DNA of 64,000 bases from Flavobacteriales bacterium (GTDB lineage: Bacteria > Bacteroidota > Bacteroidia > UBA10329). The first letter of the stretch is position 1; every line of letters starts with the position of its first letter. Both the position numbers and the translations under genes were made by a program. The notes below the pieces were generated by a model. That model made no database searches, was not told the DNA's origin, and was given only the letters and a program-made list of their open reading frames with translations. This document shows positions 13,635 through 53,063 of the stretch, one piece after another. Where the stretch lies: NCBI GenBank assembly GCA_044356305.1, contig JBIKWM010000015.1, forward strand, positions 1,552 through 65,551. Reading direction: 5' to 3'.

Positions 13635-13676
13635 CGGTCTCGTTTCTTGTCGGTTAGCGCCAATGGTCAGGAGATG

Positions 13677-13889: not shown

Positions 13890-13977
13890 GACTTGTCAAA
13901 GAACCTTGTCCGTCCCGCTTCCCCCTCGGCCCTCCGGCTCTCTGGGCTGGCCCAGAGAAAAAGATGGCAAGGTGAAG

Positions 13978-14050
13978 AGCCGGTGGAGGGACTCGAACCC
14001 CCGACCAGCTGATTACAAATCAGCTGCTCTACCAGCTGAGCTACACCGGC
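13978..14050 (-). tRNA. tRNA-Thr (anticodon TGT)
   Basis: Reverse complement GCCGGTGTAGCTCAGCTGGTAGAGCAGCTGATTTGTAATCAGCTGGTCGGGGGTTCGAGTCCCTCCACCGGCT. Confidence 0.85.
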
Positions 14051-17566: not shown

Positions 17567-17631
17567 TCTGCATTCCACTCCCCAAAAAAAGTTAAGTCCG
17601 AAGGCCCTAGCACCGGGGCACTGGTAGTTTT

Positions 17632-32781: not shown

Positions 32782-34150
32782 GGACTTTCTTGCCGAAGAC
32801 AGTGAGAAAGACGACTTTAAAGTCAAGCCATAGGCTCCAATTTTCGATGTACCACAAATCATGCTTTGTCCGATTATACTTTTGGTCATAGGTCTCTGTA
32901 GGGCCTCTCCAGCCATTCACTTGTGCCCAACCCGTTATACCAGGTTTAATATAATGACGAATCATGTATCCGTCAACATCACGCTGAAAATCCTCGTTCA
33001 AAAGGGTTCGATGTGGTCGTGGCCCTACAACACTCATATCGCTCAAAAGGACATTTATAAACTGGGGCATCTCATCAATACTGTACTTGCGCATGAAACG
33101 GCCGATGCGTGTCACTCTTGGATCATCCTTAACGGTGCTTTGGGTATTGTTTTGTGCCGGGGCGTTCTGACGCATGCTCCGAAACTTGAAACACTTGAAA
33201 GGTCTACCTCCTTGCCCAATGCGCTCAGGCACATAAAACACAGGGCCAGGGCTCTCAAATAGAATTAGTAGCGATATGACCATCAGAACGGGTGAGAGTA
33301 TAACAAGAACACATGACGCGAAAATCAAATCAAACAAACGCTTCAATAATTTATTAACGAGATTGTCCAATGGAACTTCTCTTACATTCACGATTGGAAG
33401 GTCACCCACGCGATGGAACACGTAAGAAGCATTAAAAATTCGGTAATAATCGGGTATAAGGCGAATCCTGATGCCATGGAAATCAGCGATATCAACGACT
33501 GATTTAATCTTCTCCTCAGCAGACACGGGGAGTGCCAGATAAACTTCATCTATATCGTACTTCTCAATGACACCCTCGAGTATATCCAATGGACCAAGCT
33601 GAAGCTCAACAGGTGTATCTGAACCAACGAAATCATCGTCAAGAAATCCTATGACACGGTAGCCCAAAGCCGGATTTGAGACCATGAAACGGTAAACCTT
33701 AGTTCCCACTCTACCCGCCCCGAGCACTAGTACCTTTACCATGTGCCTGCCCCGCTGCCTCATGATTCTCAAATACTGATATAGAGCCACATAACCGAAA
33801 TTGCGCAATAGGAAAAAAATCCCGATGGTACCGAAAATCATCAGCCGTGAGTACAGCTCAATATTGAACAATAGGATACCTACAGAGACCGCTCCGCTGA
33901 GCATGAGGAAATCAATAATCTGAATTCTCACCCGAGAACTTACACGTTCGCGGAAGGCTAAGTTCTGATTGCTGAAAAACAAGACTATTGCTGTCCATCC
34001 AACTGAAATGACCAAGAGGGCGAAATAAGCATTAGGTCTGGGGCTGAGGTTTCCGAATTTGACCAACCCTGCCAGGTAGAACGAGATGACAATAAGGAAC
34101 AAGTCATACACAAGAAAATATCCAACCAGCCTCTTGTCTCTCTGAAGCAT
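32765..34150 (-). CDS. Undecaprenyl-phosphate sugar-1-phosphate transferase (WbaP/WcaJ family initiating enzyme)
   Basis: N-terminal TM bundle, CoA-binding-like domain, and the Bac_transf domain (PGPVFYVPERIGQGGRPFKCFKFRSM...DEMPQF...VVGPRP). The longest ORF runs to 34267. The Met at 34150 avoids overlap with the divergent gene. Confidence 0.8.
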   Translation of the reverse strand: MLQRDKRLVGYFLVYDLFLIVISFYLAGLVKFGNLSPRPNAYFALLVISVGWTAIVLFFSNQNLAFRERVSSRVRIQIIDFLMLSGAVSVGILLFNIELYSRLMIFGTIGIFFLLRNFGYVALYQYLRIMRQRGRHMVKVLVLGAGRVGTKVYRFMVSNPALGYRVIGFLDDDFVGSDTPVELQLGPLDILEGVIEKYDIDEVYLALPVSAEEKIKSVVDIADFHGIRIRLIPDYYRIFNASYVFHRVGDLPIVNVREVPLDNLVNKLLKRLFDLIFASCVLVILSPVLMVISLLILFESPGPVFYVPERIGQGGRPFKCFKFRSMRQNAPAQNNTQSTVKDDPRVTRIGRFMRKYSIDEMPQFINVLLSDMSVVGPRPHRTLLNEDFQRDVDGYMIRHYIKPGITGWAQVNGWRGPTETYDQKYNRTKHDLWYIENWSLWLDFKVVFLTVFGKKVHENAF

Positions 34151-34162: not shown

Positions 34163-35320
34163 TTGAGGCGCAAATGTACACGCGAAACAACTGGTAAAAA
34201 TTATAAGGCGCTCACTGATTCTGCTGAATCGAGATGTCCAGAACGATTGTTGTTCAAAATAGACCACCGAAGCTTGAAAGGCTTATTTTTGCGGCACCAT
34301 AAAAGGCCTGTGATTTTATTTGACGTTTACCATTTGCCGCAGTGGAACTTCCTGCGGAGCTCTATTCACTCGGTCGAAGCTGAGGAGCGGATAGTGTGCT
34401 GTGTGGACCGTTCTAAACTGGTGAGCATAATCCGTAAAGAACTCAACGGGGGCACGTTCATTCATTTCGGTTCCTATAGGAACAATTTTGGTTTTTTAAG
34501 CATGGTGTTCCTCATAATAATCCCTAGGATACTTTGGCTGATATACATACTGAGGAAGTTAAAGGTCACCTATGTTATTTCGGCAAACTACCAGTCAAAT
34601 CTTGCGGCCCGTTTCTGGGGCATCCCGAATATTGTATTCAATGATGATCCGCGTAAAGGGGTGATTCAAATTGCGAGATTTGCAGCAAATGTCACCTACC
34701 TTACTAAGGGCCTGAAATACCCGGGTACTCGAGAATTGAACTGTTTAAAAGAGTGGGCATACTTAGCTCCGAAGTATTTCAGCCCTGACCGAGGTGTTCT
34801 CACGTCTATGGGTCTCAGTCCCTTCGGTTACATAATGCTACGCGAGGTCAGCACTGAGACAACCAACTACTCCCAACAAAAGGCCGGCATGCTCATTACG
34901 GCTGAAGTGCCTGAGGGCGTCACGGTGATTCTGTCTCTTGAGAACAAGAAAATGCGGGCTCAGGTGCCTATTGGTTGGACGATACTTGAAGAGCCAGTGA
35001 ATGATATCCACAGTCTGATGTTCTTCGCCCGGGGTTTCGCGAGCACAGGGGATAGCATGGCCCGAGAAGCTGCGGAACTTGGCGCACCTTCATTCTATTC
35101 GGGCATTCGGGACATGGGTGCCAATAAGGTGCTGATTGATATGGGGCTAATGGAACAGGCCACAGCTGAGGAGGCCATCGCTAGGCTCTGTTCACTGAAG
35201 CCAATTACGGATGTTCAAGCAGAGGTCAACAGGCGCCAAGAGATAAGAGAGCGCATTGCCAGAGAATGGGATGATGTGAATGAATTGATACAAAGTCACT
35301 TGAAAGAAACCAAGAAATAA
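34163..35320 (+). CDS. DUF354-family protein (glycosyltransferase-like fold) in the polysaccharide locus
   Basis: 385 aa. The N-terminal region ...ILFDVYHLPQ...GIPNIVFNDD resembles DUF354. The true start may lie downstream of the first ATG. Confidence 0.45.
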   Translation: MRRKCTRETTGKNYKALTDSAESRCPERLLFKIDHRSLKGLFLRHHKRPVILFDVYHLPQWNFLRSSIHSVEAEERIVCCVDRSKLVSIIRKELNGGTFIHFGSYRNNFGFLSMVFLIIIPRILWLIYILRKLKVTYVISANYQSNLAARFWGIPNIVFNDDPRKGVIQIARFAANVTYLTKGLKYPGTRELNCLKEWAYLAPKYFSPDRGVLTSMGLSPFGYIMLREVSTETTNYSQQKAGMLITAEVPEGVTVILSLENKKMRAQVPIGWTILEEPVNDIHSLMFFARGFASTGDSMAREAAELGAPSFYSGIRDMGANKVLIDMGLMEQATAEEAIARLCSLKPITDVQAEVNRRQEIRERIAREWDDVNELIQSHLKETKK

Positions 35321-36624
35321 TGGACGTTTCAATTTTCGGGCTTGGATACGTTGGATGCGTGTCGATGGCATGTTTGGCCAAAGCCGGCCACCGCGTAATT
35401 GGGGTTGATGTGGCGGCTGATAAGAACATGCTGATTAACAGTGGCAGGGCCACAATTGTGGAAAAAGATATTGACGACCTGATTGAGGAAGGTTGGAAGA
35501 GAAATGCTCTGAGTGCCACTGCTGATGCTACCGAAGCGGTTATGAATTCGGAAGTGAGTATCATCTGTGTAGGTACACCCAACAACGACCGAGGAAATCT
35601 CCACCTTCGATATATTGAAGAGACAGGTAGAGCCATCGGCTTAGGGTTGCGTAAAAAGGAAGGCTACCATGTGGTAGCGATCCGCAGCACTGTGGTGCCT
35701 GGAACCTGCAGCAGCCTTGAAGAGATTATTGCTCACGAATCGGGCAAGACCCCTGGGGTTGATTTCAGTGTCCTCAGCAATCCCGAGTTCCTTCGGGAAG
35801 GAAGTGCAGTAAATGACTATTTCAATCCGCCAATGACCGTCATAGGATCTTCAGACACCAAAGCCGTTAAAGTGATAAGTCGGTTATATGAGAACCTTCC
35901 TGCGCCCATTATTGTAGTGGAGACCAAGGTGGCAGAAGTCATTAAATTCGTCAACAATTCATATCATGCCCTTAAAATAGCCTTTGCGAATGAAGTAGGG
36001 AATACGTGTAAGGCGTTGGGCATAGACTCGCATCAAGTGATGGAACTGTTTGGCCAAGACACGAAACTGAATATCTCTACTGCTTATTTCAAACCGGGCT
36101 TCGCCTATGGAGGTTCATGCCTTCCGAAGGACCTGCTGGGATTGATTGCAATGGCCCGAGATAATGATGTGCGAACCCCATTGTTAAAAGGCATTTCAGA
36201 AAGTAATGATGAGCAGGTCCAACGGGCACTCAGATTGGTTTACGCATCAGGAAAGAGAAAAGTAGGGATGCTTGGCCTTTCCTTTAAAGAAGGTACCGAT
36301 GATTTGCGTCTGAGTCCACACGTGGTTGTGGCCGAAACGCTTTATGGCAAGGGCTTCCAGTTAAGGATATTCGACAAGAATGTGCACGTATCAGGACTCC
36401 ATGGAAAAAACAAAGCATATATGGATCATCACCTACCTCACCTCAACTCTCTTATATCTGATGACTTGGAGGCTGTCATTGTTGAATCAGATGTCATTAT
36501 ACTAAGTCACAAAAATCAGATATTCAGCAACATACATCTTCGCTATCCCGAAAAATTGGTTATTGATCTTAACAGGAACGTACCGATTCTCAGCGCAGGA
36601 AATTATCAGGGCATATGTTGGTGA
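35320..36624 (+). CDS. GDP-mannose 6-dehydrogenase (AlgD-like nucleotide-sugar dehydrogenase)
   Basis: 434 aa. MDVSIFGLGYVGCVSMACLAKAGHRVIGVDV..., GGSCLPKD catalytic Cys, and a C-terminus ...QGICW. These features track AlgD along its whole length. Confidence 0.75.
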   Translation: MDVSIFGLGYVGCVSMACLAKAGHRVIGVDVAADKNMLINSGRATIVEKDIDDLIEEGWKRNALSATADATEAVMNSEVSIICVGTPNNDRGNLHLRYIEETGRAIGLGLRKKEGYHVVAIRSTVVPGTCSSLEEIIAHESGKTPGVDFSVLSNPEFLREGSAVNDYFNPPMTVIGSSDTKAVKVISRLYENLPAPIIVVETKVAEVIKFVNNSYHALKIAFANEVGNTCKALGIDSHQVMELFGQDTKLNISTAYFKPGFAYGGSCLPKDLLGLIAMARDNDVRTPLLKGISESNDEQVQRALRLVYASGKRKVGMLGLSFKEGTDDLRLSPHVVVAETLYGKGFQLRIFDKNVHVSGLHGKNKAYMDHHLPHLNSLISDDLEAVIVESDVIILSHKNQIFSNIHLRYPEKLVIDLNRNVPILSAGNYQGICW

Positions 36625-36633: not shown

Positions 36634-37590
36634 TCACAGGCCAGGACACACTCTGTTGTAAACAGACATTAGCCGCCTAGCTACTGTGCGGTTGTCATAA
36701 CTGGTGAAATTGGGCCCAGCAGTACTGCGCGTACCGGTGCCCATCACCGTCTGAAGCGCATCGACATAAGCTCCGATTGACTTTGAAATGATGTGGTTCC
36801 CTGTTGAACCAATGCAGATTCTGCCCACTTCTCCCACATCGTTACTCACAATAGGTAGTCCATTAAGAAGTGCTTCTTTTATTACCTGAGGACTTCCTTC
36901 TGAGACGCTGCACATCAGTAGTGCATCTGAGGCCTTCATTACGGCTGTCACACCGGCCCTATCAAGGCCTTTAAGTTCTAAGAACTCAATATTGCGCTGT
37001 GGATTACGTTTGCGCAACTCATCAATAACGGAATGAGCAAATACTGGATCCTTCTCAGGCCGAGTGAACGATGAACAGAAAAGGACCACAAAAGCATTAG
37101 CATCAAGCCCTAATCTGCCCCGCGTGTTAGTTAAAGTACTCTCTTTCGATTCAAAATCAATACCGCATGGAATTACCTCACTAGATAACGGAAGTAGGGT
37201 CTGCAAGGGCGCGGATACCACAATCCGCGCATGGGCCAGCAGACCGGCAGCCCACGAGACCCACCTCTCTCGGCCCAGATTCAAGTCGCTGCCATGGTAA
37301 GTGACAACCCCTTTGGCGCGTTTCCAGAACATACTCCTTACGGCACACATTGCAGGCAGAGCCGAAAGGCCATAGTGTGCGTGCAATATTATAGGGTCCA
37401 TCTGCCATATTCGATTGCACAACTCGAAATAGGTCTTAAAGTATCCCATTATTCCTCCCTTACCAATCAAATGATGACAGACTTCTCCGGAATTGGTGAA
37501 GCGTTCCAAGGCTATCGCCTGCTCTTCTACAAAAGGATGTGGGCGGCCATCAGGATTACTCCTGCTCACGAAGATGATCTGTTCTTTCAT
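36634..37590 (-). CDS. Glycosyltransferase family 4 (GT-B)
   Basis: C-terminal GT4 motif region (...EGSPQVIKEALLNGLPIVSNDVGEV...). The start is trimmed to the Met at 37590 (MKEQIIFVS). Confidence 0.7.
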   Translation of the reverse strand: MKEQIIFVSRSNPDGRPHPFVEEQAIALERFTNSGEVCHHLIGKGGIMGYFKTYFELCNRIWQMDPIILHAHYGLSALPAMCAVRSMFWKRAKGVVTYHGSDLNLGRERWVSWAAGLLAHARIVVSAPLQTLLPLSSEVIPCGIDFESKESTLTNTRGRLGLDANAFVVLFCSSFTRPEKDPVFAHSVIDELRKRNPQRNIEFLELKGLDRAGVTAVMKASDALLMCSVSEGSPQVIKEALLNGLPIVSNDVGEVGRICIGSTGNHIISKSIGAYVDALQTVMGTGTRSTAGPNFTSYDNRTVARRLMSVYNRVCPGL

Positions 37591-38818
37591 TCTGTTTCTT
37601 CTGATGGTAAGCAGCCGCCAATAGTCCCAAGTAAATGAAAATGAACGAGCGGAAGGAAATAATGTACATCTGTCCACTCACTGAGATAACGAATTGAATT
37701 AGAAACATGAACCAAAACAACCTGACGTTCTCATCAGACCAATCCTTAAGAGGCATCCTGAAAAGGAAGGGTATGGCAAAAAGGAAAATGAGGTAAATCA
37801 AAAGGCCCACCACACCTCCGCCATGCAACCAAGTGAAGTAGTCAACATGGATCATTCTGTCCAAGTACATTCCCCCGCCATAATTTCCCATAGAGTTGAA
37901 CATCTCAAAACCAAAGAGTGATTTGGGAACATCGCGGAACATAAGCACCTCTTCGTAAATGATCCCGATCTCCTGATAACGCATTTCGCCTTCAAGGGAC
38001 TCTACAGCCATCTTATCAGCCCTGGCCTCCATTCGCTCAAGGAATGCCTGAGAATTTACCGTCACAAAAAATGCCAATCCCAATATGATAACCGATGGGA
38101 GCAGGCGAGAGAAAACGGTGCGGACACTACCGGTGTTCATGAAAGCCACGCCCATCACAACAATCAAGGGTGAGAGCCTTCTCAGAGTGAACACCAGCAA
38201 AACTGTACTTATGGCCGATGCGGCCAACTCGATATATCTTCTCATTAATGACCCTGATCCACCTAGGGTGGTCAAGGTCACAATAGTCATGAGCGAGATT
38301 AAATGCAGATCCGAGCCGAAGAGGTAACCTGAGAGGAATGAATCGCTCCCGTATGTGCTCACTCCGAAACCGAAAATATTGCTCAACATCACATAGATAA
38401 TGAATATGATCAGCGCTTTAGGAAACAATGCCCTCAATCTGGCCAGAACCCGCTGGGCATCCTTCACCCGAAAAGCCAAAGAGACAAGTATCAAAGGGAT
38501 GAACACCCTCATTGCAAATCTGGCCGAGTGTTCTACATCTGAGCTCCGCATTATCCCTATCAAAGTATATAGGACAAGAAAAATGAGCACGATATCAAGA
38601 CGCCTTAGTCCGGTCCGCGCATAATGAACCACTATGAATATATAAAAGAACCCGGCCCTCATAAGAGCGATCATGCCTGCTAACTCCGGACTTTGTGCCA
38701 TATCAAGCGCGATATTCAGGACAAATGCGGAGAACATGAAATCACCGAGATTCAATGACTTTACACTCAGGAAAAGCCAGAGCACAATGAGAAAAATGGC
38801 AACAACCCCAAAAATCAT
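37556..38818 (-). CDS. Wzy-like polysaccharide polymerase (O-antigen ligase family membrane protein)
   Basis: 420 aa, about 10-12 TM helices with a large loop. Located between the GT and acetyltransferase genes. Confidence 0.55.
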   Translation of the reverse strand: MIFGVVAIFLIVLWLFLSVKSLNLGDFMFSAFVLNIALDMAQSPELAGMIALMRAGFFYIFIVVHYARTGLRRLDIVLIFLVLYTLIGIMRSSDVEHSARFAMRVFIPLILVSLAFRVKDAQRVLARLRALFPKALIIFIIYVMLSNIFGFGVSTYGSDSFLSGYLFGSDLHLISLMTIVTLTTLGGSGSLMRRYIELAASAISTVLLVFTLRRLSPLIVVMGVAFMNTGSVRTVFSRLLPSVIILGLAFFVTVNSQAFLERMEARADKMAVESLEGEMRYQEIGIIYEEVLMFRDVPKSLFGFEMFNSMGNYGGGMYLDRMIHVDYFTWLHGGGVVGLLIYLIFLFAIPFLFRMPLKDWSDENVRLFWFMFLIQFVISVSGQMYIISFRSFIFIYLGLLAAAYHQKKQNERTDHLREQE

Positions 38819-39354
38819 CAGTTCCTGGTTCCAATGACTTTGGCAGGCACACCGCCCACTATGTCATATGCTATAATGTCTTTTGTCACCACACTGCATG
38901 CAGCCACCACAGCCCCTGTCCCTATTCGTACCCCGGGCATAATTACAGCCCTCCTTCCGAGCCAAACATCATCTTCTATAACAATTGCCTTCTCTTGGCC
39001 ATAACCTTGAGTGATGATTGGCCTGTCCACAGAACTGAACTCATGATTGCGTGTATAGAACAGCACTTCAGGCGCAATAAGCACATTATCGCCTATTGTA
39101 AGATCTCCATGCACTTCGCACAGTCGGCCCAAGCCGCTATTATTGCCAATGGAGATTCTGCCTTTTCCGAGATAACATTCGGCATCGATATTGACATTGG
39201 AACCTACATGCCTGAGAAACATACGGGCGAACGTAGCCCTCAAAGTCTTACTGGGCGGACCTACCAAAGGCAACGATGTCCTAGGCAAACGATAGGCCAA
39301 TAGATAATATCCGGCTATTCCTAACCACTTTCTCATCCTCGCATAATTTTCCAA
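38818..39354 (-). CDS. Hexapeptide-repeat sugar O-acetyltransferase
   Basis: 178 aa left-handed beta-helix (IGDNVLIAPEVLFYT...IEDDVWLGRRAVIMPGVRIGTGAVVAACSVV). Confidence 0.75.
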   Translation of the reverse strand: MENYARMRKWLGIAGYYLLAYRLPRTSLPLVGPPSKTLRATFARMFLRHVGSNVNIDAECYLGKGRISIGNNSGLGRLCEVHGDLTIGDNVLIAPEVLFYTRNHEFSSVDRPIITQGYGQEKAIVIEDDVWLGRRAVIMPGVRIGTGAVVAACSVVTKDIIAYDIVGGVPAKVIGTRN

Positions 39355-40037
39355 GTCATCCGCTTAAATTGAAAAGCTAAATGGTAGGCCAAATAGGCCC
39401 AAGTTCTTAACGGTCTCGAGCCTATGGGCTTAAAAGGATAACCGGACTTTTCGAGCTCCATGTTAAACCTAATTCCAATGGTCATGGAGTCGCGGTCATA
39501 GTTTGGTACTTTATCTTTAGTTCCAACCGACTTACCAGCTGTCTCATTCACACGTGGAAGCGGGCGCACTTCAATGGCACCTATTAGGCGCAGCATGTCC
39601 TTAAAATCTGACGAGAGGTTTTCCTTACGCAATAGCAACCGTGGTGATGCTGCTATGAAGTTTGAAGGATCGACAAATGCCAATGGCATGAATAATCTAA
39701 GATAGTTCTCAAAGCCGATACCCACCACTCTGACAAGAAAATAAGCAGGAAGGTTTGCCAAAAGCATCATGTACTTGACTACGGGCCAATTGCCATGATG
39801 CATGAAGTAAGACAAGGGATTGTTCTTGTACTTGAGATACTTGCTATACGTTCGATCTATGGGATCGCTAACCCCGTAGAACAAGTCGTAACCGCTGCAA
39901 TCATCAGGAATCTTGAAGGAATGTTTTGATCCTTCAGACCGACCTCCATATTGACTCATCAGTTCCTGCCTGACAGCTTCGCTCCCTGTGCGTGGAACCT
40001 CAATAAACACCGCTCTGTACCGGTCCAGAATAACCAT
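39333..40037 (-). CDS. Sulfotransferase-family protein
   Basis: 234 aa. PAPS 5'-phosphosulfate loop IEVPRTGSEAV, and an RDP-like 3'-phosphate motif region VSDPIDRTYSKY. Confidence 0.5.
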   Translation of the reverse strand: MVILDRYRAVFIEVPRTGSEAVRQELMSQYGGRSEGSKHSFKIPDDCSGYDLFYGVSDPIDRTYSKYLKYKNNPLSYFMHHGNWPVVKYMMLLANLPAYFLVRVVGIGFENYLRLFMPLAFVDPSNFIAASPRLLLRKENLSSDFKDMLRLIGAIEVRPLPRVNETAGKSVGTKDKVPNYDRDSMTIGIRFNMELEKSGYPFKPIGSRPLRTWAYLAYHLAFQFKRMTWKIMRG

Positions 40038-40040: not shown

Positions 40041-41009
40041 TTATCCGAGTCTTGACTTGAGTTTATGGAACCTCATTCTGAGGCGGTGAGTGTCGAAGAG
40101 TATCATTCGGGCAGTATTTGCCAACGAACCGAAAATGAACCTCAAAGAATCGAACAACAGGTGTAGAAGGTTCATCGGGTTCAGGCAGGCGCTTCTGCGA
40201 CTTAGCCCACCGTAACCGAAGGATTCAAGTTCCTTTATGCACACTAACGAGTAGATGAAATTGACATATCCATCGGGGTCGAATTTACCTTTGTTTCTCC
40301 TGATCACACCGGCACCTACATTTCCATGAAAATGCCTATGGCTTTCTGGGACTACAAACTTCTTGTCCGGCCTTTCTGACACTTGGGTCTTCACTCCGAG
40401 CCACGAAACTATCTCTGCTACCCTTTCCGGATTCTCAAGTATGTCCTCATACCTGACTATGTGCTTGATCCACAAGGTCGAGAGGAATACCCTACTCTTA
40501 TACTGCCAATTGAGGGCTGATTGCAGTACATTTTGGCTAAATGAACGACCAGCCAGATTTGTGCTATTTGCCTTCGACAAATGAACATCCCTGCCGTCAC
40601 GCACCATCAGAATTGCCTTTGCATCGGGCCAGAGGTGCTCAAACTGACGCAGGTGATTAGTAGGAGGATGCTTCACAATGATGCACCTTTCGGTTGAATC
40701 TTCAAACCAAGGGTATCGCAACCTCAGGTGTTCTGCAATGATGGCCTCTGAGAGCGACTTAACATCCGTGTGTCTCTGGGCCATTGTCAGCACGGTGACT
40801 TTGCTCAATCCGAGATCATTGAACTGAGGCTCCTCAAAGAGGTACTCAGTGAGTCGGTCTGCAACTGGCAGCGTTGTCAGGCTCAAGAGTCTACTGACAA
40901 AGGCGGTTTCGTTCGTCACAGCCACGAACTCAAATCGCTCAAGCAAATCGGCCAACATTGTTGACCCGCTCCGGCTGTCGTATAAGATGAATGCCAGTTT
41001 AGAATTCAA
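40041..41009 (-). CDS. Sulfotransferase-family protein
   Basis: 322 aa. 5'-PSB loop YDSRSGSTML and 3'-PB motif MVRDGRDVHLS (R-D-x-R-D). Confidence 0.65.
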   Translation of the reverse strand: MNSKLAFILYDSRSGSTMLADLLERFEFVAVTNETAFVSRLLSLTTLPVADRLTEYLFEEPQFNDLGLSKVTVLTMAQRHTDVKSLSEAIIAEHLRLRYPWFEDSTERCIIVKHPPTNHLRQFEHLWPDAKAILMVRDGRDVHLSKANSTNLAGRSFSQNVLQSALNWQYKSRVFLSTLWIKHIVRYEDILENPERVAEIVSWLGVKTQVSERPDKKFVVPESHRHFHGNVGAGVIRRNKGKFDPDGYVNFIYSLVCIKELESFGYGGLSRRSACLNPMNLLHLLFDSLRFIFGSLANTARMILFDTHRLRMRFHKLKSRLG

Positions 41010-41092: not shown

Positions 41093-42331
41093 CTACAAGA
41101 AACTGTTGCCGGTTGTATTCACCATTCTGCGATGCAGCATGTAGTTCCAGAGGGTACCACTTATGAGCGTTGCAATTGCCAGCCCATTCAAGCCTAACCA
41201 TGGCACAGTGGTAAAAGCCAAGATCAATGTTATGACAAGCGATACGGCTGTAGACCGGACGAAGTAATCCCTCATATCGCTCAACTGAAAATATAGGCCA
41301 ACCGGCCCAAAGAAGACATTTAAAACGTTACATAAGATAACTGTAACGCAAAGAATCAAGAACAATGGCTCTGCTGGATAGCCATAGAACTTAAGAAACC
41401 AAGGACTGCAAAGCAGTGCCAACATAGCGAATGCAAAGGTGGTTAGCTTTGATAACCGTATTAGTTGTCTATGGCGGTCCGAGAGTTGGTGACCCTCAGC
41501 TAGCCTTGCCAGGCCCTTGGCAATATCCGCATTCAACGCTACCAGTGGCAGGTTGACAAGCTTACCGAGTTTCTGTACCACGGAATAAAGAGCCACCTGC
41601 CCCAAGGGCAAGAATGCCCCTGCCAAGAAGACCTCGAGCCACCCTTTAAATACCTGAAGCCCACTGCCCAAAGACAGCGAGAGGCCTTTAGTGTAAACTG
41701 ACCAAAAAAGCTTTGGGCTCATTCCAGAATGCTCAGGGGTTGACCCGTAAGACCGGATAAGGACTACAGCCAATGTGATGAGACATGTAATCAGGCCACT
41801 GGTCATGAGCATTTCAACTGGTTCGGCCTCATACTTGGATAGAAGAAAGACCATCACCACGGCCGATCGCAGGATGTCTTTGAACAGAATGTACCAATTA
41901 CCGTTCAGCCAGTAGCGCGACACCTCAAACAGGAACAAGGAGAACGAATATGCGATGAACGCGACCAATAACCTCCAATCAGCCAAGGTGCTTATTGATT
42001 CCAGAGAGGCTATCAGGGCCCCAACCATTGCTATCGCCACAATATTCAGTGCCACCCCCATGGCTTTCAATGTCAACAAATCAACATCAAAGGTCTCTTT
42101 TCCAGCAAATGTCCTTAGTGCCAAGAGACCTTGACCTACCCCTGCCAAAGTGCCGAAAGTGAGGAGATACCCATGTGTGAGAATGTACTCCCCATACTCC
42201 GTGTCGCCCCTGAACTGCATGTAGAGCTTAGCCAGAGCGAACGTAACCAGAACACTGCCGCCCTTAAAGAACAGCGAAGTGAATTGACGGATAACACCTC
42301 TTTTGTTCACCTTACCTGCCATTTGCACCAA
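41093..42331 (-). CDS. Wzx-type oligosaccharide flippase (polysaccharide biosynthesis protein, MOP superfamily)
   Basis: 412 aa with about 12 TM helices, in the Wzy/GT/ST operon. Confidence 0.7.
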   Translation of the reverse strand: MVQMAGKVNKRGVIRQFTSLFFKGGSVLVTFALAKLYMQFRGDTEYGEYILTHGYLLTFGTLAGVGQGLLALRTFAGKETFDVDLLTLKAMGVALNIVAIAMVGALIASLESISTLADWRLLVAFIAYSFSLFLFEVSRYWLNGNWYILFKDILRSAVVMVFLLSKYEAEPVEMLMTSGLITCLITLAVVLIRSYGSTPEHSGMSPKLFWSVYTKGLSLSLGSGLQVFKGWLEVFLAGAFLPLGQVALYSVVQKLGKLVNLPLVALNADIAKGLARLAEGHQLSDRHRQLIRLSKLTTFAFAMLALLCSPWFLKFYGYPAEPLFLILCVTVILCNVLNVFFGPVGLYFQLSDMRDYFVRSTAVSLVITLILAFTTVPWLGLNGLAIATLISGTLWNYMLHRRMVNTTGNSFL

Positions 42332-43193
42332 ATAAGCTGAAGTGCGCGAATGGATCTGACATCGTCATCCTATCCCGAAGTATCATGATGTCGTCAAAAT
42401 CTGTAGTGCGCTTTGAAACAGGCACATTTGTCAATCGTTTATTTCTTGCGGCATAAATTCCAAGTTTAAGGAACAGAGGCTGTGTCCAAGAATCTGAGCA
42501 ATTGAGTCCTTGATGGTCAAACTCGATTCCATTTCTGCCAATAACTTGGAGGCGCCCTTTTTCATTGGATGCGAGCCTGATCACGAGAAGGCATTCTCGC
42601 CATTCTCCAGGTTCGGATAAGAACTTTCTCCTCATCGTTGTTCGCCCTGATGAGTATGACTGCCAGATACCACCTGAAGCATCTGAACGGAGCCGCCCTA
42701 CTAGTGGCAGCCATGGACTGATTGGTTCTTTCTCCTTCTTTGTCCGTGTATGCAACTGCATACAAATCGCATCAGGAAATCCTGTCGCATCATCGGGGAA
42801 GGGTCTCATCCTAAAGTAAACTAGATAGGTCCCCTTGCCAATCTCAAATTCAGAGTTCTCTCCGAGCGAAATCTCCGTTCTGAAATCATTCCTTGGGTCG
42901 TTGTTACTGAGTTCAGCCCTCATAAAGAAAGTTGAATCAGACTCATCCATGACAATAACAGGGCAGTTACCGCTACAAACCCCAGCCTCGCTCAATAATC
43001 CAGTTTCAAAACCACAGCTGAAAATCAACTCAACCTCCTTCTGATTAAGCAGTTTTTGGATTTCCCGTTGAACTGGTCTTTCAGCATTCAAAAGAGTTCC
43101 TTTATCCAGATTGTCCGGCAATTTTTGGCTCATAGACCTGAATGGAATCAGAATCACGAGGCTAATAAGTCTAAGGGTCAAACTATACCCCAT
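42312..43193 (-). CDS. Secreted beta-jelly-roll protein, polysaccharide lyase family 7-like candidate
   Basis: 293 aa with a signal peptide. Three PL7-like motifs in canonical order: FRTEIS (for RSELR), CMQLH (for QIH), LFLKLGIYAARN (for YFKAGVYNQ). Confidence 0.35.
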   Translation of the reverse strand: MGYSLTLRLISLVILIPFRSMSQKLPDNLDKGTLLNAERPVQREIQKLLNQKEVELIFSCGFETGLLSEAGVCSGNCPVIVMDESDSTFFMRAELSNNDPRNDFRTEISLGENSEFEIGKGTYLVYFRMRPFPDDATGFPDAICMQLHTRTKKEKEPISPWLPLVGRLRSDASGGIWQSYSSGRTTMRRKFLSEPGEWRECLLVIRLASNEKGRLQVIGRNGIEFDHQGLNCSDSWTQPLFLKLGIYAARNKRLTNVPVSKRTTDFDDIMILRDRMTMSDPFAHFSLFGANGR

Positions 43194-43197: not shown

Positions 43198-43779
43198 TCA
43201 AAATTTCAACTCACTTTCCACCGCCCCGCACACACTGTGCGCAATGAGTATATGCATCTCCTGAATGCGCGCGGTGTCATCACTCGGAACAATCAGGGAC
43301 AGATGGCACTTGGGTGCCAACTGGCCACCATCGCGACCTGCAAGTGCGATGCATGTGCAACCGATGGCCAATCCTGCCTTGACAGCGGCCAGCACATTGT
43401 GGCTGTTGCCACTGGTACTTATAGCTATGATGACATCTCCTGGACTTGCCAGGGCCTCCACCTGCCGCGCGAAGATCTGCTCAAATCCAAGGTCGTTGCC
43501 GATGGCCGTGAGAGCGCTCGTGTCAGTTGTGAGAGCAATGGCAGCCAACGCCTTCCTGTCAAACCTGAAACGACCACTCAGCTCGGCTGCGAAATGCTGG
43601 GCATCGGCTGCGCTTCCCCCATTGCCACACAAAAGGACTTTGTTACCTGCATAGAGTGCCTTTATGATCAATTGCGCCATTGCAGCCATCTGAGGCGCCA
43701 ATGCGTTTCGCACAGATGTGAGGACCTCGGCATGGGCGTCTATCTCATCAATCATGCTCTTCTCCAACGGGCTCATCAC
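43198..43779 (-). CDS. gmhA: D-sedoheptulose-7-phosphate isomerase
   Basis: 193 aa SIS domain ([19 protein letters not shown]). Confidence 0.9.
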
Positions 43780-44723
43780 TTGCTCAAGTATCCATCGGTT
43801 GAACTAAGAAACGCGTGATAACGTGCAATACCCTCATTGAGTGACATGAACCGGTGCGCACATCCAGCGGCCCTCAATTGATTCAGATCGGCACAAGTGA
43901 ACTCCTGATATTTCCCTTTCAGGTGTTCAGGAAATGGCACCTCCGTCACCTTGCCATTTGGGCTGAGGCGTTGCAGCGAATCAGCCACAGCGGTGAAGGG
44001 TTCGGCCTTGCCGGTGCCACAGTTGAAAATCCCTGTGGTCGGGTGGTCCAGAAAATGAAGAACCACGGCAACCACGTCCTCTACAAAAACGAAGTCTCGT
44101 TTGAATCCCTCACTTCCCTCAAACAACTGCATGGATCCACCCTGCTGCAGCTGCCTGTAAAGATGGTACGCAACCGAGGCCATGTGCCCTTTATGGTTCT
44201 CTTGTGGCCCATATACGTTGAAGTACCGTAGACCCGTGACAGGCGCATGCAGGTTACCTTTTGCCCTACGATGGCGCACATGATTATCGAAGGCAAGCTT
44301 TGAGAAAGCGTATCCGTTTAGCGGCTTTTCACACATGTGCTCTTCGCGAAAACCCAATGTGCCATTGCCATACACTGCGGCACTGCTAGCATAGATAAGC
44401 GGCACATGCCACCTGTTGCAAGCATGCAAAACCTCCTTGCTGTAGAGGTAATTGTTCCGCATCAGGTAATCATTGTCCGTCTGGGTGGTATCTGAACACG
44501 CTCCTTGGTGAATGATGGCCGCATATTTCTGACTCGGCCCCTTTATAAGTGCAAGGAAATCGTCCCTGTGCATGTAGTCAGCATATTGCAGACCATTCAG
44601 ATTAAGAAACTTAGGGCCGTTCCCAAGATTATCGACAATTAAAATATCCCTGATACCACGCTTATTGAGCCCTTGCACAATGTTGCTCCCAATGAAGCCT
44701 GCTCCACCTGTTACAACTATCAT
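43776..44723 (-). CDS. hldD: ADP-L-glycero-D-manno-heptose 6-epimerase
   Basis: 315 aa. [33 protein letters not shown]... and the YxxxK SDR catalytic pair. Confidence 0.9.
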
Positions 44724-46144
44724 ATTGAATCCCTCTTCTGAATGATAGCAGTAGTTGAAAGTCCGGGGACCAGTGGCAGAATGACCGTCTGGTCCGCATG
44801 CTCACGCCCAACCACCGCCTCGGGTGAATAATCTCCGCCTTTGACCAGAACATCGGGTCTGATGAGCTCAATGATCTGGGCCGGAGTGTCCTCATCGAAA
44901 AAAGTCACATAGTCCACAACACCGAGATGCGCAATGAGATAGGCCCGGTCATCGAGGGTGTTGATGGGTCTTGTATGGCCTTTGAGTCTCCGAACGGATT
45001 CATCGGAGTTCAGTGCCACCACGAGCAGGTCGCCCAAGGCGGATGCTCTTTCCAAAAGACTCACATGGCCCCTGTGGAGCACATCGAAGCATCCATTGGT
45101 GAATACGATACGCTTGCCTTCAACTCGTAATCTGATCAGTTCTGCCGTGAGTTCATTAATGCCTAGAATTTTGGAATCAGTTCCCAGCTGTGACGCAAGT
45201 TCTACCTCCTTGCTGGTGACACGTGCCGTGCCAACATGGCCAACAGCGATACCTGCGGCCACATTGGCCAAGCGCAGTCTGAGATGCCATTCGGTGTGGG
45301 TAGACATGAGGAGGGCGACCATAGCGAGGACCGTGTCGCCCGCACCGGTCACATCGAACACTTCACGTGCCGATGCCGGACTGTGCACCGCTTCAGTCGC
45401 AGAGATGTAAGACATCCCGCGCTCCGATCTTGTGACCAGAACGGCCCCTATCCCATGTTCTGTCAACAGTTTTCGGGCAGCACCGGTCACAGACCCATCG
45501 TCATTTCTAACCTCATGCCCCGAAGCATCTCCCAGCTCCTTTAGGTTAGGGGTGATAAGGTCGGCTCCAGTGTATCGGCCCCAGTCCGCACTCTTCGGGT
45601 CAACCACCGAGTATATACCCATCTGTTGTGACATGCTGATGAGCCGTGTGCAGATGTCTGGGCTAAGGGTGCCTTTGGCATAATCACTAAGCACCAGTAC
45701 GGAGGCATGCTCCATGGCCCTGAATGCCCTGGTGAGTAACTCTTCCGTTCGTGTTGGCTCAATGACAGCATTCGCTACTTCGCGGTCTACGCGTACAAGT
45801 TGATGCTTGCCGGCCATAATCCTGGTCTTGAGCACTGTACAGGGCAAAGCGGCCACGAGATCGTGCTCAACGGTCAATTCATTGAGCCGGGCTGAGAGAA
45901 TCTCAGCCTCTCGGTCAGGCCCTACGAAAGAGAGAAGATGGGCACAGGCTCCGAGTGCCACGATATTGGACGCCACGTTGGCCGCACCCCCAGGCGCTTC
46001 AGTCACCTCGCTCTGCAGCACCACCGGCACAGGGGCCTCCGGGCTAATACGATGTGCTGCGCCTGTCACATATCGGTCAAGCATGGCATCGCCAATGACA
46101 ACGATGCGAAGTTGACTGAAATCAGGGAGTGACATGGCCGACAA
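44720..46144 (-). CDS. hldE: Bifunctional D-beta-D-heptose 7-phosphate kinase / heptose 1-phosphate adenylyltransferase
   Basis: 474 aa. N-terminal PfkB kinase, C-terminal cytidylyltransferase (VFTNGCFDVLHRGHVSLL). Confidence 0.9.
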   Translation of the reverse strand: MSAMSLPDFSQLRIVVIGDAMLDRYVTGAAHRISPEAPVPVVLQSEVTEAPGGAANVASNIVALGACAHLLSFVGPDREAEILSARLNELTVEHDLVAALPCTVLKTRIMAGKHQLVRVDREVANAVIEPTRTEELLTRAFRAMEHASVLVLSDYAKGTLSPDICTRLISMSQQMGIYSVVDPKSADWGRYTGADLITPNLKELGDASGHEVRNDDGSVTGAARKLLTEHGIGAVLVTRSERGMSYISATEAVHSPASAREVFDVTGAGDTVLAMVALLMSTHTEWHLRLRLANVAAGIAVGHVGTARVTSKEVELASQLGTDSKILGINELTAELIRLRVEGKRIVFTNGCFDVLHRGHVSLLERASALGDLLVVALNSDESVRRLKGHTRPINTLDDRAYLIAHLGVVDYVTFFDEDTPAQIIELIRPDVLVKGGDYSPEAVVGREHADQTVILPLVPGLSTTAIIQKRDSI

Positions 46145-46152
46145 AGGTCGGC

Positions 46153-47436
46153 TCAGACAATCATTCCTGCGCCAACGGTATTGTTGGTGCCTTCATCAAT
46201 AATGATCACGCTGCCTGTGATGCGGTTTTTACGATAACCGTCAAAGAAAAGTGGGGCAGTGGTGCGCAGCTTGATACGACCAATGTCATTCAAAGCGATG
46301 GTCGTATCGCCCTCCACCTTTTGCATAGTGTTGATGTTCATCTTATACATCACCTCTTTGATCACACACCGGGCATCGCGGCTGGTGTGCTTGATCGCGT
46401 ACTTACCGCCAAGTTGAAGTGGGCGATCGCTCATCCAGCATACCATCACATCCACCTCTTGCTCCGCATCAGGGCGGTTGTTCGGTTTCACGATCATGTC
46501 GCCACGGCTGATGTCAATATCATCTTCGAGGGTCATGATTACGCTCATCGGGGCAAACGCCTCCTTCACCTCTTCGCCCATGATCTCGATACTCTTGATC
46601 TTAGATGTGAAGCCGGAAGGAAGCACTGATACCTCTTCGCCTGCACGGAATATTCCGCCAGCCACACGTCCTGCATAACCGCGGTAGTCATGATACTCCG
46701 ATTTCATAGGGCGCACAACGTACTGCACCGGAAAGCGCGCATCGATATGGTTATTATCGCTACCGATGTGAACGTTTTCAAGGATGTGCATCAAGGTGGA
46801 GCCACCATACCAGTCCATGTTCTTGGAGCGGTCCACCACGTTGTCACCCAATAGGGCCGAAATGGGAACGAATCGCACGTCTTTTATATCCAGGCGTGCC
46901 GAGAAATCCTCAAAATCATTACGCACCTTCTCGTAAGCCTCTTCTGAGAATCCGACCAGGTCCATCTTGTTGACACACACCACCACGTGAGGTATCTGGA
47001 GCAACGATGCGATGTAGGCATGGCGCTTGGTCTGCTCAATCACACCTTGACGGGCATCTACAAGTATGATGGCCAGATTGGCCGTGCTGGCACCGGTCAC
47101 CATGTTGCGGGTGTACTGAATGTGACCCGGTGTGTCAGCAATGATGAATTTGCGCTTTGGGGTGGCGAAGTAGCGGTAGGCGACATCGATGGTGATGCCC
47201 TGTTCGCGCTCAGCACGCAGGCCATCGGTCAAAAGGGCAAGGTTCACATGCTCTTCTCCCTTTTTGGCGCTGGCCTGTTCAATGGCCTCCATCTGATCGG
47301 CAAAAATTGACTTGCTGTCGTACAGCAGTCGGCCGATAAGGGTGCTCTTTCCATCATCAACGCTGCCGGCAGTGGTGAAACGGAGCAGCTCCATGTCGAG
47401 GTAGCCGCGGTGGTCGGTGGTTACTTCCTTCGTCAT
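46153..47436 (-). CDS. cysN: Sulfate adenylyltransferase subunit 1 (GTPase)
   Basis: GTPase motifs GSVDDGKST, DTPGH and NKMD. The start is trimmed to the Met at 47436 (MTKEVTTDH...). The longest ORF overlaps cysD. Confidence 0.9.
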   Translation of the reverse strand: MTKEVTTDHRGYLDMELLRFTTAGSVDDGKSTLIGRLLYDSKSIFADQMEAIEQASAKKGEEHVNLALLTDGLRAEREQGITIDVAYRYFATPKRKFIIADTPGHIQYTRNMVTGASTANLAIILVDARQGVIEQTKRHAYIASLLQIPHVVVCVNKMDLVGFSEEAYEKVRNDFEDFSARLDIKDVRFVPISALLGDNVVDRSKNMDWYGGSTLMHILENVHIGSDNNHIDARFPVQYVVRPMKSEYHDYRGYAGRVAGGIFRAGEEVSVLPSGFTSKIKSIEIMGEEVKEAFAPMSVIMTLEDDIDISRGDMIVKPNNRPDAEQEVDVMVCWMSDRPLQLGGKYAIKHTSRDARCVIKEVMYKMNINTMQKVEGDTTIALNDIGRIKLRTTAPLFFDGYRKNRITGSVIIIDEGTNNTVGAGMIV

Positions 47437-47473: not shown

Positions 47474-48469
47474 TCAGAAATATCCCTGCTTCTTCCTGTC
47501 CTCCATGGCGGCCTCAGAGCGTTTGTCGTCCTGACGGCTGCCGCGCTCGGTGACGCGAGATGATGCCACCTCCTCAATTATATCCTCAAGGGTTGAGGCA
47601 TTGGACACAGTGGCCCCGGTGCAGGTCATATCGCCTATGGTACGGAAACGCACCTGCATGGTCCGCCTGGTCGCCAGTTCGCTCTCGCGCAGGTTCATGT
47701 ATTCAGAGTAGGCGTACAATGCCCCGTTGCGCTCGATCACCTCACGCTGGTGAGTGAAATAGATGCTCGGCATAGGGATGTTCTCCATCAGTATGTACTG
47801 CCATACATCCATCTCGGTCCAGTTACTGATCGGGAACACCCTGAAGTGCTCGCCCAGGTGCTTGCGGCCGTTAAAGAGGTTCCACAGCTCGGGGCGCTGG
47901 TTCTTTGGGTCCCATTGGCCGAACTCGTCACGGTGAGAGAAGAAACGCTCCTTTGCACGGGCCTTCTCCTCGTCCCTGCGTCCTCCGCCAAGGGCAGCAT
48001 CAAACTTGCCAGCCTCAAGACTCTCGAGCAGTGTTACTGTCTGTAGAGCATTGCGACTTGCGTTGTAGCCCTTCTCTTCAACTGCGGTCCCACGGTCAAT
48101 GGAATCCTGAACGTGGCCCACGATGAGCTTGGCCCCCGTGCGGGCTACCAGCTCATCGCGGTAGTCAAGGGTCTCTTGAAAGTTGTGGCCCGTATCGATA
48201 TGCAACAAAGGGAACGGGATGCTGGCCGGATAGAAAGCCTTCATGGCCAGATGGGTCATCACTATTGAGTCTTTACCACCTGAGAAAAGCAGCACGGGGT
48301 TCTCGAACTGTGCTGCCACCTCGCGCATCACGAACATGCTCTCTGACTCGAGCTCGCGGAGGTGATTGAGTTTGTATGCCTTTGATTCCAAGTTGATTGA
48401 AATTGTATTATTCGTTTGATTTAGGCCCTTATGCGACCCATGATCGCGGCCAATACCTGATCTGCACAT
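47474..48469 (-). CDS. cysD: Sulfate adenylyltransferase subunit 2
   Basis: Colinear with E. coli CysD (LNHLRELESESMFVMREVAAQFENPVLLFSGGKDS...KKQGYF). The ATG at 48469 overlaps cysC by 49 nt. An in-frame TTG at 48391 aligns with the canonical N-terminus and removes the overlap. Confidence 0.88.
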   Translation of the reverse strand: MCRSGIGRDHGSHKGLNQTNNTISINLESKAYKLNHLRELESESMFVMREVAAQFENPVLLFSGGKDSIVMTHLAMKAFYPASIPFPLLHIDTGHNFQETLDYRDELVARTGAKLIVGHVQDSIDRGTAVEEKGYNASRNALQTVTLLESLEAGKFDAALGGGRRDEEKARAKERFFSHRDEFGQWDPKNQRPELWNLFNGRKHLGEHFRVFPISNWTEMDVWQYILMENIPMPSIYFTHQREVIERNGALYAYSEYMNLRESELATRRTMQVRFRTIGDMTCTGATVSNASTLEDIIEEVASSRVTERGSRQDDKRSEAAMEDRKKQGYF

Positions 48470-49023
48470 TCCTCCACTGAACGGCCAGCGGTAGGCACAT
48501 CCACATCGGGCCGGTCGGGTGCCTCAAAAGGGGCATCGAGGCCAGTGAAGTTCTTGATCTCGCCTGCGCGGGCCTTTTTGTAAAGCCCTTTCACATCGCG
48601 TCTCTCACACTCCTCGAATGAGGTGTTCACGTAAACCTCCACAAAGTCATCGGCACCGATAATGTCTTTGGCCATTGTTCGGATGTCGCGCGTGGGGCTC
48701 ACAAAACAATTGATGGTGACAATGCCACAGTTCACAAAAAGCTTGCTCACCTCCGCTATCCTGCGGATGTTCTCAGTGCGGTCATCCTCACTGAAGCCCA
48801 AGTTGTTGCAGATGCCTGTGCGCACATTGTCGCCATCGAGCACCTGGGTAAGAATGCCTTTTTCGGCCAACTTCCGCTCAAGTGCCGCAGCTATGGTGGT
48901 CTTTCCCGACCCGCTAAGACCGGTCATCCACACCACCGAACCACGCTGCTTGAGCATGGACTCCTTATCGCCCCGCTGAAGGATGCGATCGAAAGTAGGA
49001 TGGATGTTTTTGCCTGTCAACAT
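48421..49023 (-). CDS. cysC: Adenylyl-sulfate kinase (APS kinase)
   Basis: 200 aa. P-loop GLSGSGKTT and the conserved APS-kinase core. Confidence 0.9.
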   Translation of the reverse strand: MLTGKNIHPTFDRILQRGDKESMLKQRGSVVWMTGLSGSGKTTIAAALERKLAEKGILTQVLDGDNVRTGICNNLGFSEDDRTENIRRIAEVSKLFVNCGIVTINCFVSPTRDIRTMAKDIIGADDFVEVYVNTSFEECERRDVKGLYKKARAGEIKNFTGLDAPFEAPDRPDVDVPTAGRSVEECADQVLAAIMGRIRA

Positions 49024-52846: not shown

Positions 52847-53003
52847 GGCGGGTTCAGTGTGTGGCGGTGGCGCATGTGCGGCTGCGGGCGGCCCCGTGGG
52901 GCAGATGCCAAGGTAGGCGGGCCGCCCCTGCATGGGGCCGGTGTTGATAAATAGATTGCTGCTGAGTGTGTGGCAGATGCATCGGGGGCACAATGCTCAG
53001 CAC

Positions 53004-53030
53004 GCACACCGTAACCTATTTACGGTGTGC
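53004..53030. promoter_or_regulatory. Perfect inverted repeat in the dinB/dnaE2 divergent promoter (candidate SOS-type operator)
   Basis: GCACACCGTAA-cctat-TTACGGTGTGC, with 11-bp arms. It ends 34 nt upstream of the dnaE2 ATG. Confidence 0.35.
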
Positions 53031-53063
53031 TGTGCCCTGCCGTAACGACCTTGGCACCGCCTC

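Follow-up and report, generated by a model that had tools for sequence, protein, structure and literature searches.

What does a set of genes for making an activated heptose do inside a locus for a surface polysaccharide? The question arises in a 64,000-nucleotide stretch of contig JBIKWM010000015.1, from a Flavobacteriales bacterium, which we analysed at its full length and refer to as the window. Between aspS and deoC, the outer bounds of the whole polysaccharide locus in the window, lie gmhA, hldD and hldE, three genes of the pathway to adenosine diphosphate (ADP)-activated heptose. We consider it probable that this trio is a dedicated supply of ADP-L,D-heptose for a sulfated, acetylated and uronic-acid-containing polymer of the Wzx/Wzy type, with the phosphatase of the pathway acting in trans. 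The surface polymer, a slime or a capsule, probably contains both heptose and sulfate; the entry of heptose into the polymer is what we infer. The three genes are as follows.

43198..43776, minus strand: gmhA, sedoheptulose-7-phosphate isomerase (192 amino acids from the ATG, 193 with the GTG at 43779)
43776..44723, minus strand: hldD (gmhD/rfaD), ADP-glyceromanno-heptose 6-epimerase (TIGR02197)
44720..46135, minus strand: hldE, bifunctional heptose-7-phosphate kinase and heptose-1-phosphate adenylyltransferase (471 amino acids)

All three heptose enzymes are intact and keep their conserved catalytic motifs, and the original prediction, which had named and placed them from the letters of the DNA, is borne out by three minus-strand open reading frames (ORFs) with family and PDB matches. 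GmhA matched TIGR00441 at 207.3 bits (E = 1e-61), slightly below the cutoff of 209.45, and SIS_2 at 101 bits; its best solved relative was the phosphoheptose isomerase of Campylobacter jejuni (1TK9, 208 bits). HldD scored 385 bits against TIGR02197, well above the cutoff of 274.6, aligned end to end with the Escherichia coli epimerase AGME (1EQ2; 350 bits, residues 1-307) and kept S116, Y140, K144 and K178 of 1EQ2, the Ser/Tyr/Lys catalytic set. HldE matched NF008454 at 484 bits (E = 3e-145, below the cutoff of 521), and the domain models TIGR02198 and TIGR02199 both matched nearly full length. It combines a PfkB kinase domain with a cytidylyltransferase-like domain (CTP_transf_like), carries the motifs DVTGAGD and FDVLHRGH, and resembles HldA (4E84) in its N-terminal domain and HldC (5X9Q) in its C-terminal domain. 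By predicted activity, hldE-hldD-gmhA is a working supply module for ADP-L-glycero-beta-D-manno-heptose.

The trio is tightly packed. For hldE, the ATG at 46135, as in public gene calls, is a likelier start than the TTG at 46144. The 4-nt overlap claimed for hldE and hldD at 44720-44723 was seen as ATGA, whereas the one claimed for hldD and gmhA at 43776-43779 depends on the start codon within GTGATG: it measures 4 nt with the GTG start (43779) but 1 nt with the ATG start (43776), which is the start of the public calls, where the exact GmhA protein is found with 192 amino acids. Directly upstream of hldE lie the genes for synthesis of 3'-phosphoadenosine 5'-phosphosulfate (PAPS), the sulfate donor genes of the cluster.

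46153..47436, minus strand: cysN, sulfate adenylyltransferase large subunit (427 amino acids from the ATG at 47436; TIGR02034, 558 bits)
47474..48391, minus strand: cysD, sulfate adenylyltransferase small subunit (NF003587, 453 bits; start uncertain, 48337-48469)
48421..49023, minus strand: cysC, adenylylsulfate (APS) kinase (TIGR00455, 240 bits; APS_kinase, 215 bits)

cysC is the first gene of the operon and diverges from deoC. On the minus strand the order is cysC-cysD-cysN-hldE-hldD-gmhA-lyase-wzx-sulfotransferase-orf234-acetyltransferase-wzy-GT4, with 17 nt between cysN and hldE and the lyase-like ORF beginning 4 nt past the gmhA stop. This tight operon layout indicates that the heptose trio is translationally coupled and co-transcribed with the polymer genes. 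CysD, CysN, CysC and the sulfotransferase are all encoded in the cluster, and all four have NCBIfam or Pfam matches. Gene identities across the whole interval from aspS to deoC thereby confirm that the trio is embedded in a Wza/Wzc/Wzx/Wzy-type locus beside PAPS genes, as had been proposed; its position between the PAPS genes and the putative flippase also stands, except that one PF14099 lyase-like ORF (42312-43193) intervenes before the latter.

We then compared the locus with its nearest relatives. Among 5.8 billion proteins, just three clusters stood closer to HldE (67, 65 and 59% identity), all others being at 48% or less, and a scan of GTDB genomes gave relatives of at most 47% identity among the matches listed. 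Both closer loci, L084/L085 and L086/L090, come from close relatives of the host (DeoC 91% identical), and both carry cysCDN-hldE-hldD-gmhA at the deoC end, followed by polysaccharide genes that differ from those of the window. The order in L084/L085 is deoC, cysC cysD cysN hldE hldD gmhA, Bac_transf, Wzi-like, WecG, GT4, Wzy_C, sulfotransferase. L086/L090 is a complete locus at the same site as in the window, between aspS (90% identical) and deoC (91%), and has the same six genes as diverged alleles (47-76%), followed by a nonulosonic-acid pathway. All locus variants at this position (the window, L084/L085 and L086/L090) retain the heptose trio.

Protein identity between the window and L084 was high for DeoC (91%), CysC (92%), CysD (96.5%) and CysN (97.4%), lower for HldE (67%), HldD (84%) and GmhA (76%), and lowest downstream, where WcaJ was 37% and the Wzi-like protein 33% identical and the other genes were unmatched. 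At the DNA level, identity to L084 went from 84-92% over the cys genes to 62-68%, dropping exactly at the cysN/hldE junction (~46100), and was mosaic within hldD; in the comparison with L086, the break came one step further out, at deoC/cysC. Because identity breaks at cysN/hldE, the heptose genes lie in the exchanged cassette and not in the conserved flank. They belong to a cassette exchanged between lineages, for which the alignments suggest the cysN/hldE junction as a recurrent crossover site.

Two local features were seen at this junction. Over 46101-46700, the 3' end of cysN stands out as an island, 82-85% identical to L084 and L086 alike, and at 46100 identity to L084 falls from about 85% to about 64%. 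The 17-nt spacer between cysN and hldE (46136-46152), whose length and most of whose bases are conserved in L084 and L086, is filled in the window by a perfect 6-bp hairpin, GCCGAC-CTTT-GTCGGC. We rejected this hairpin as a terminator: it lacks a following run of T, and neither L084 nor L086 preserves the stem.

The linkage of sulfate activation to heptose activation extends beyond these close relatives. cysD adjoins hldE in all five Flavobacteriales-type loci (the window, L084, L086, L087 and L089), compared to one of 160 diverse hldE loci. A metagenome scan with an HldE-clade profile (two generic motifs) gave overwhelmingly ordinary HldE genes, of at most 48% identity, and is used here for background statistics only. 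The one exception among the 160 loci is L067, a metagenome-assembled genome (MAG) of Thermodesulfobacteriota with the order gmhA hldE gmhB cysD cysNC. The combination of cysC, cysD and cysN with hldE thus looks like a recurrent module for the joint supply of sulfate and heptose. The metagenomic locus L089 reads cysD cysN fcl gmd hldE hldD gmhA sulfotransferase wzx orf wzy GT9 sulfotransferase sulfotransferase, and its HldE falls in the sister clade of the window's HldE in a neighbour-joining tree. From its gene matches, L089 is a predicted Wzx/Wzy locus with a heptosyltransferase of its own. In Tenacibaculum xiamenense (L022), Bac_transf, gmhB, hldD, hldE, gmhA and GT9 genes stand together.

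The remaining genes of the locus in the window describe the polymer that the heptose may enter.

42312..43193, minus strand: orf293, PF14099-family polysaccharide lyase-like protein (own Pfam match 24 bits, below the cutoff)
41093..42322, minus strand: orf412, putative Wzx-type flippase (at least 8 hydrophobic segments; no direct Pfam match)
40041..41009, minus strand: PAPS-dependent sulfotransferase (Sulfotransfer_3, 49.6 bits; Sulfotransfer_1, 30.5 bits; N-terminal SRSGST loop)
39333..40037, minus strand: orf234, conserved partner of the sulfotransferase in L091 (51% identical homologue in the same position there)
38818..39336, minus strand: hexapeptide-repeat O-acetyltransferase, WcaF/WbbJ-like (Hexapep, 61.6 bits; NF007797, 70 bits)
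37556..38818, minus strand: orf420, putative Wzy-type polymerase (inferred from at least 9 hydrophobic segments; 49% identical homologue in L091)
36634..37590, minus strand: GT4-family glycosyltransferase (Glyco_trans_1_4, Glyco_transf_4 and Glycos_transf_1 matches)
35320..36624, plus strand: nucleoside diphosphate (NDP)-sugar 6-dehydrogenase, for a uronic-acid precursor (TIGR03026, 379 bits; three UDPG_MGDP_dh domains)
34310..35320, plus strand: orf385, DUF354 (PF04007) protein of GT-B fold (homologues carry PF04007)
32765..34150, minus strand: WcaJ-type initiating undecaprenyl-phosphate hexose-1-phosphate transferase (TIGR03023, 432 bits, above the cutoff of 410.75; Bac_transf, 222 bits)
31117..32781, minus strand: Wzi-like outer-membrane protein (Caps_assemb_Wzi, 24.6 bits, below the cutoff; start uncertain, 32781-32916)
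28475..30910, plus strand: Wzc, PCP-2a tyrosine autokinase (Wzz, GNVR and AAA_31 domains; TIGR01007, 151 bits, above the cutoff)
27683..28432, plus strand: Wza-type outer-membrane polysaccharide export lipoprotein (Poly_export, 64 bits, and SLBB domains; lipobox-like LSLSSC)

Several of these assignments draw on relatives. The putative flippase showed weak BLAST similarity to the L089 Polysacc_synt protein (25% identity, E = 7e-10), the putative polymerase had no family match in Pfam or NCBIfam, and the Wzi-like protein had homologues of 51-59% identity in L090 and L091, one of them annotated as Caps_assemb_Wzi. The product of 35320..36624 is named guanosine diphosphate (GDP)-mannose 6-dehydrogenase by JGI. 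The family of orf293 is rare: a set of 1.84 billion proteins contains 14 representatives of it, each of which matches PF14099 (best E = 1.5e-35). The AlphaFold2 model of orf293 (mean predicted local distance difference test score, pLDDT, 81.5) had the PL20 glucuronan lyase 2ZZJ as its top PDB match, followed by alginate lyases, and a PL20-like lyase fits a uronic-acid polymer with its processing lyase. A signal peptide is possible in orf293, yet public gene calls take shorter starts. We also considered orf293 as the missing heptose enzyme and rejected it, as it is this PF14099, PL20-like lyase. For orf234, searches of NCBIfam, Pfam and PDB gave no family or structure match; a role as second sulfotransferase is unsupported, in that its N-terminal PRTGS recalls a PAPS-binding loop but hhalign profile-profile comparison gives nothing. 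At the C-terminus of Wzc (30830-30890), nine GY repeats (GYGYGY...YY) form an unusually regular tyrosine cluster for autophosphorylation.

Which enzymes would complete the pathway and transfer the heptose was assessed with hidden Markov models (HMMs) built from 20 GmhB and 40 GT9 sequences of the comparison loci and run on all six frames of the window. The GmhB model found no GmhB, in line with the original prediction that gmhB is absent from the window; its single match was a HAD-IA, YihX-like protein at 19 bits, which is a match at the superfamily level. This HAD protein (60890-61519), 15 kb away, was therefore rejected as GmhB. gmhB lay within 10 kb of hldE in 40 of the 160 diverse loci and was unlinked in the other 120, so that its absence from the window is unremarkable and the gene may lie elsewhere in the genome. 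GT9 genes lay within 10 kb of hldE in 60 of the 160. In the window's six frames the best match to the GT9 model was no better than E = 0.08, and the same model detects the GT9 genes of L089 and L022.

To our knowledge, all characterised enzymes that use ADP-heptose are GT9 (PF01075) heptosyltransferases. Apart from the initiating enzyme, the GT4 enzyme at 36634-37590 is the only recognised Leloir transferase in the locus, which makes it a candidate heptosyltransferase. The DUF354 protein was rejected for this role. Its AlphaFold2 model (pLDDT 95) has NDP-sugar 2-epimerases and GT1 enzymes as nearest folds, with no GT9 entry recognised among the 50 structure matches listed. DUF354 is always paired with the NDP-sugar dehydrogenase, and related loci as well as a Zobellia exopolysaccharide (EPS) locus preserve the pair (L090, L091 and L174). 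In the Zobellia locus a PF14099 lyase accompanies the pair, and the genes called within 10 kb include neither heptose nor cys genes, indicating that DUF354 is not heptose-specific. It may be a transferase or an epimerase, and its pairing with the dehydrogenase recalls WecB/WecC.

The locus stands out from its surroundings as a low-GC island (guanine-plus-cytosine content 0.42-0.49, compared to 0.55-0.62 in the flanks), and GC at third codon positions in the heptose genes (0.54-0.60) lies between that of the flanks (0.65-0.75) and that of the variable genes (0.45-0.57). The window starts with rpoC-rpoB-rplLJAK-nusG-secE-tRNA-Trp-tuf, the names from rpoC to tuf being based on the lengths of the ORFs, on comparison with the homologous locus L001 and on look-ups of identical proteins. 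Genes for tRNA-Thr, Tyr, Gly and Thr lie upstream of tuf and one for tRNA-Trp between tuf and secE (12075-14050). The order tRNA-Thr/Tyr/Gly/Thr-tuf-tRNA-Trp-secE is typical of Bacteroidota and fits that assignment, for which a search with aspartyl-tRNA synthetase (AspRS) gave independent support: the host protein is about 72% identical to Flavobacteriales MAG proteins, and every named match was from Bacteroidota. By these markers the host is an uncultured Bacteroidota bacterium whose nearest named relatives are Flavobacteriales MAGs. The window comes from a contig of 70,160 bp in the source MAG, found in NCBI and in JGI samples 3300043803 and 3300044986. Just outside the locus (51629-56048), a gene for a DinB-type polymerase (IMS family) and one for a 994-amino-acid DnaE2-like polymerase lie on opposite strands with their 5' ends facing. 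The pair looks like an error-prone repair (mutagenesis) cassette.

A route from sugar phosphate to polymer can be proposed from these parts. GmhA would isomerise sedoheptulose-7-phosphate, the kinase domain of HldE would form the beta-1,7-bisphosphate, and a phosphatase from elsewhere in the genome, whether GmhB or some other HAD enzyme, would remove the 7-phosphate. The adenylyltransferase domain of HldE would then yield ADP-D,D-heptose, which HldD would epimerise at C6. Transfer of the heptose would fall to the GT4 enzyme (36634-37590) in place of a GT9 enzyme. The predicted product is a sulfated, O-acetylated, uronic-acid-containing and heptose-containing heteropolysaccharide, started on undecaprenyl phosphate by the WcaJ-type transferase, flipped and polymerised by Wzx and Wzy, and exported via Wza and Wzc as a capsule or an exopolysaccharide. 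A broader proposal is that the cysC-cysD-cysN-hldE-hldD-gmhA module defines an undescribed family of sulfated heptose EPS in uncultured Flavobacteriales, with transfer by a non-GT9, GT4-type enzyme and with heptose perhaps as the sulfated residue; this we put forward tentatively and hold to be doubtful.

The original prediction had named L-glycero-D-manno-heptose as a repeat-unit sugar of the polymer. What supports it is the position of the trio inside a recombining cassette, its retention in all variants and the GT9 gene between wzy and a sulfotransferase gene in L089. Several observations weigh against a heptose supply for the polymer. There is no GmhB in the window, and neither the window nor the complete L086/L090 locus has a recognisable GT9 heptosyltransferase, which leaves no recognised enzyme for putting heptose into the polymer. 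The trio is constant while the other sugars differ completely, and a use outside the polymer, for instance in the core of lipopolysaccharide (LPS), would give the same pattern. In the Flavobacteriales MAG locus L087, a GT4-like gene, wzx and wzy come after cysC cysD cysN hldE, and the 18 kb seen hold hldE (within 6714-9331) but neither hldD nor gmhA. From wza to wzx, nearly all genes of the window have a homologue in L091 (AspRS 71%), and there gmd-fcl replaces the window's lyase, gmhA and hldD and is followed by hldE (within 16782-19752), with no hldD or gmhA between hldE and wzx; about 4 kb of contig beyond hldE lies outside the stretch examined. In L087, and likewise in L091, hldE without its partners means either that the other heptose genes are elsewhere in the genome or that HldE has another substrate.

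These observations bear on three other explanations. The trio could be the genome's only ADP-heptose pathway, serving mainly the core of LPS or lipooligosaccharide through a GT9 enzyme encoded elsewhere, so that its position at the locus edge is a linkage effect. There is a precedent in Vibrio, where gmhD (hldD) is a conserved border gene of capsule and O-antigen loci (PMC11641403), and the trio does lie at the deoC-proximal edge in every variant, whatever the downstream sugars, with neither GT9 nor gmhB in the locus. HldE relatives from other phyla (47-48% identity) also occur in ordinary LPS-type contexts, as hldE-hldD-GT9 in P0036 and as isolated hldE in P0038. Yet the Vibrio border gene is conserved, whereas the alleles here have diverged much further than the core genes beside them, with the sharp break at cysN/hldE. 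The trio moreover shares an operon with polymer-specific genes, 4 nt upstream of them, and L089 has its GT9 gene between wzy and sulfotransferase genes. Bacteroides thetaiotaomicron LPS is reported to be without heptose, though a putative heptosyltransferase homologue was noted there (PMC13417296), and since the host here is also a member of Bacteroidota, this lends support to supply for the polymer. We therefore regard service to the LPS core as unlikely.

The constancy of the module above variable repeat-unit genes, together with the lack of a recognisable heptosyltransferase in the locus, would also be expected if ADP-heptose served another glycoconjugate through outside transferases, for instance in the O-heptosylation of proteins, in the general O-glycosylation system of Bacteroidota or in a primer or linker, itself conserved, that carries the variable polymer. 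ADP-heptose-dependent protein heptosylation is known in other bacteria, according to background cited in PMC13417296. We consider such a use quite improbable here, given that it has no positive evidence, that the window holds no autotransporter or BAHT-type (PF01075) gene, that the module alleles travel with the cassette and that the operon is common to wzx, wzy and the sulfotransferase. A change of substrate, in which the HldE-type enzyme, and perhaps its two partners as well, would use another sugar phosphate to make an unusual ADP-sugar tied to sulfation, is very improbable. It would account for L087, in which hldE still comes directly after cysN with hldD and gmhA absent from the 18 kb seen, for L091 without hldD or gmhA at the window's position downstream of hldE (the stretch upstream of hldE lying outside that examined), and for HldE and GmhA scores slightly under the NCBIfam equivalog cutoffs. 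It sits poorly with three full-length enzymes that carry canonical motifs, with an HldD that is far above its equivalog cutoff and aligns with E. coli AGME end to end, and with a GmhA that is closest to a proven heptose isomerase.

If heptose enters the polymer, as in the supply route that we favour, the use of ADP-heptose reaches beyond the LPS core to a Wzx/Wzy exopolysaccharide, in Bacteroidota, whose studied LPS reportedly lacks the sugar, and a heptosyltransferase outside family GT9 is implied. The fusion of sulfate-activation and heptose-activation genes marks probable sulfated heteropolysaccharides, which is relevant to carbon cycling and to the search for new sulfotransferases and lyases. 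Through ALPK1, ADP-heptose moreover acts as an agonist of innate immunity, and the sporadic occurrence of its genes in Bacteroidota matters for predicting which community members make this agonist. Current concepts are unchanged by the locus, whose value is that of a well-delimited and testable locus family.

In the full-text literature searched, a limited collection, neither a sulfated heptose polymer nor an ADP-heptose locus in Bacteroidota was described, and the closest systems each share part of the arrangement. In E. coli and other Proteobacteria, GmhA, HldE, GmhB and HldD feed the GT9 enzymes WaaC and WaaF for the LPS inner core. The window has the same three enzyme families, bifunctional HldE architecture and catalytic residues, but without GmhB or GT9 nearby, in a Wza/Wzc/Wzx/Wzy operon behind cysCDN instead of among core-LPS genes, in a Bacteroidota host and with alleles exchanged together with the polysaccharide cassette. 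C. jejuni and Burkholderia pseudomallei follow a GDP-heptose route of GmhA, HddA/WcbL, GmhB and HddC/WcbM, with the alpha-anomer, a GHMP kinase, a separate guanylyltransferase and export by an ATP-binding cassette (ABC) transporter, whereas the window has the PfkB-kinase, ADP route with a 6-epimerase and a Wzx/Wzy system. What they share with the window is a capsule locus with heptose-nucleotide genes of its own (PMC4691232). The O-antigen of Helicobacter pylori (Trio, DD-heptan) is built from ADP-heptose, beyond the inner core and undecaprenyl-linked (PMC12342981), and the window is predicted to be alike in directing ADP-heptose-derived heptose to an undecaprenyl-linked polysaccharide beyond the core. 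H. pylori, however, has one pathway for core and O-antigen, outside any variable locus, and its heptosyltransferases HP0479 and HP1283 are known, while none is identifiable in the window.

In Vibrio, likewise, a heptose-pathway gene, gmhD (hldD), borders a hypervariable polysaccharide locus (PMC11641403), but there it is one conserved core-LPS border gene, whereas in the window the whole trio falls within the recombination break and diverges with the cassette. In Vibrio sp. KMM 8419, which makes a sulfated capsule, a second cysNDC copy and sulfotransferases in the capsular polysaccharide cluster were proposed as a hallmark of sulfated polymers (PMC11641403). The window shares PAPS-synthesis genes and a sulfotransferase within a polysaccharide cluster with that strain; the Vibrio system uses ABC-transporter export and has no heptose module, and in the window the PAPS genes form one operon with hldE-hldD-gmhA. 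Two uncharacterised Bacteroidota loci, T. xiamenense L022, with an initiating transferase, and L089, with wzx, wzy, sulfotransferases and cysDN, also have hldE-hldD-gmhA in a polysaccharide locus; both encode a GT9 enzyme, and L022 also GmhB, neither of which is encoded in the window's locus. Heptose in capsules and O-antigens is already known, and the case in the window is distinguished by its unusual host and by the unusual fusion of the heptose genes to PAPS genes.

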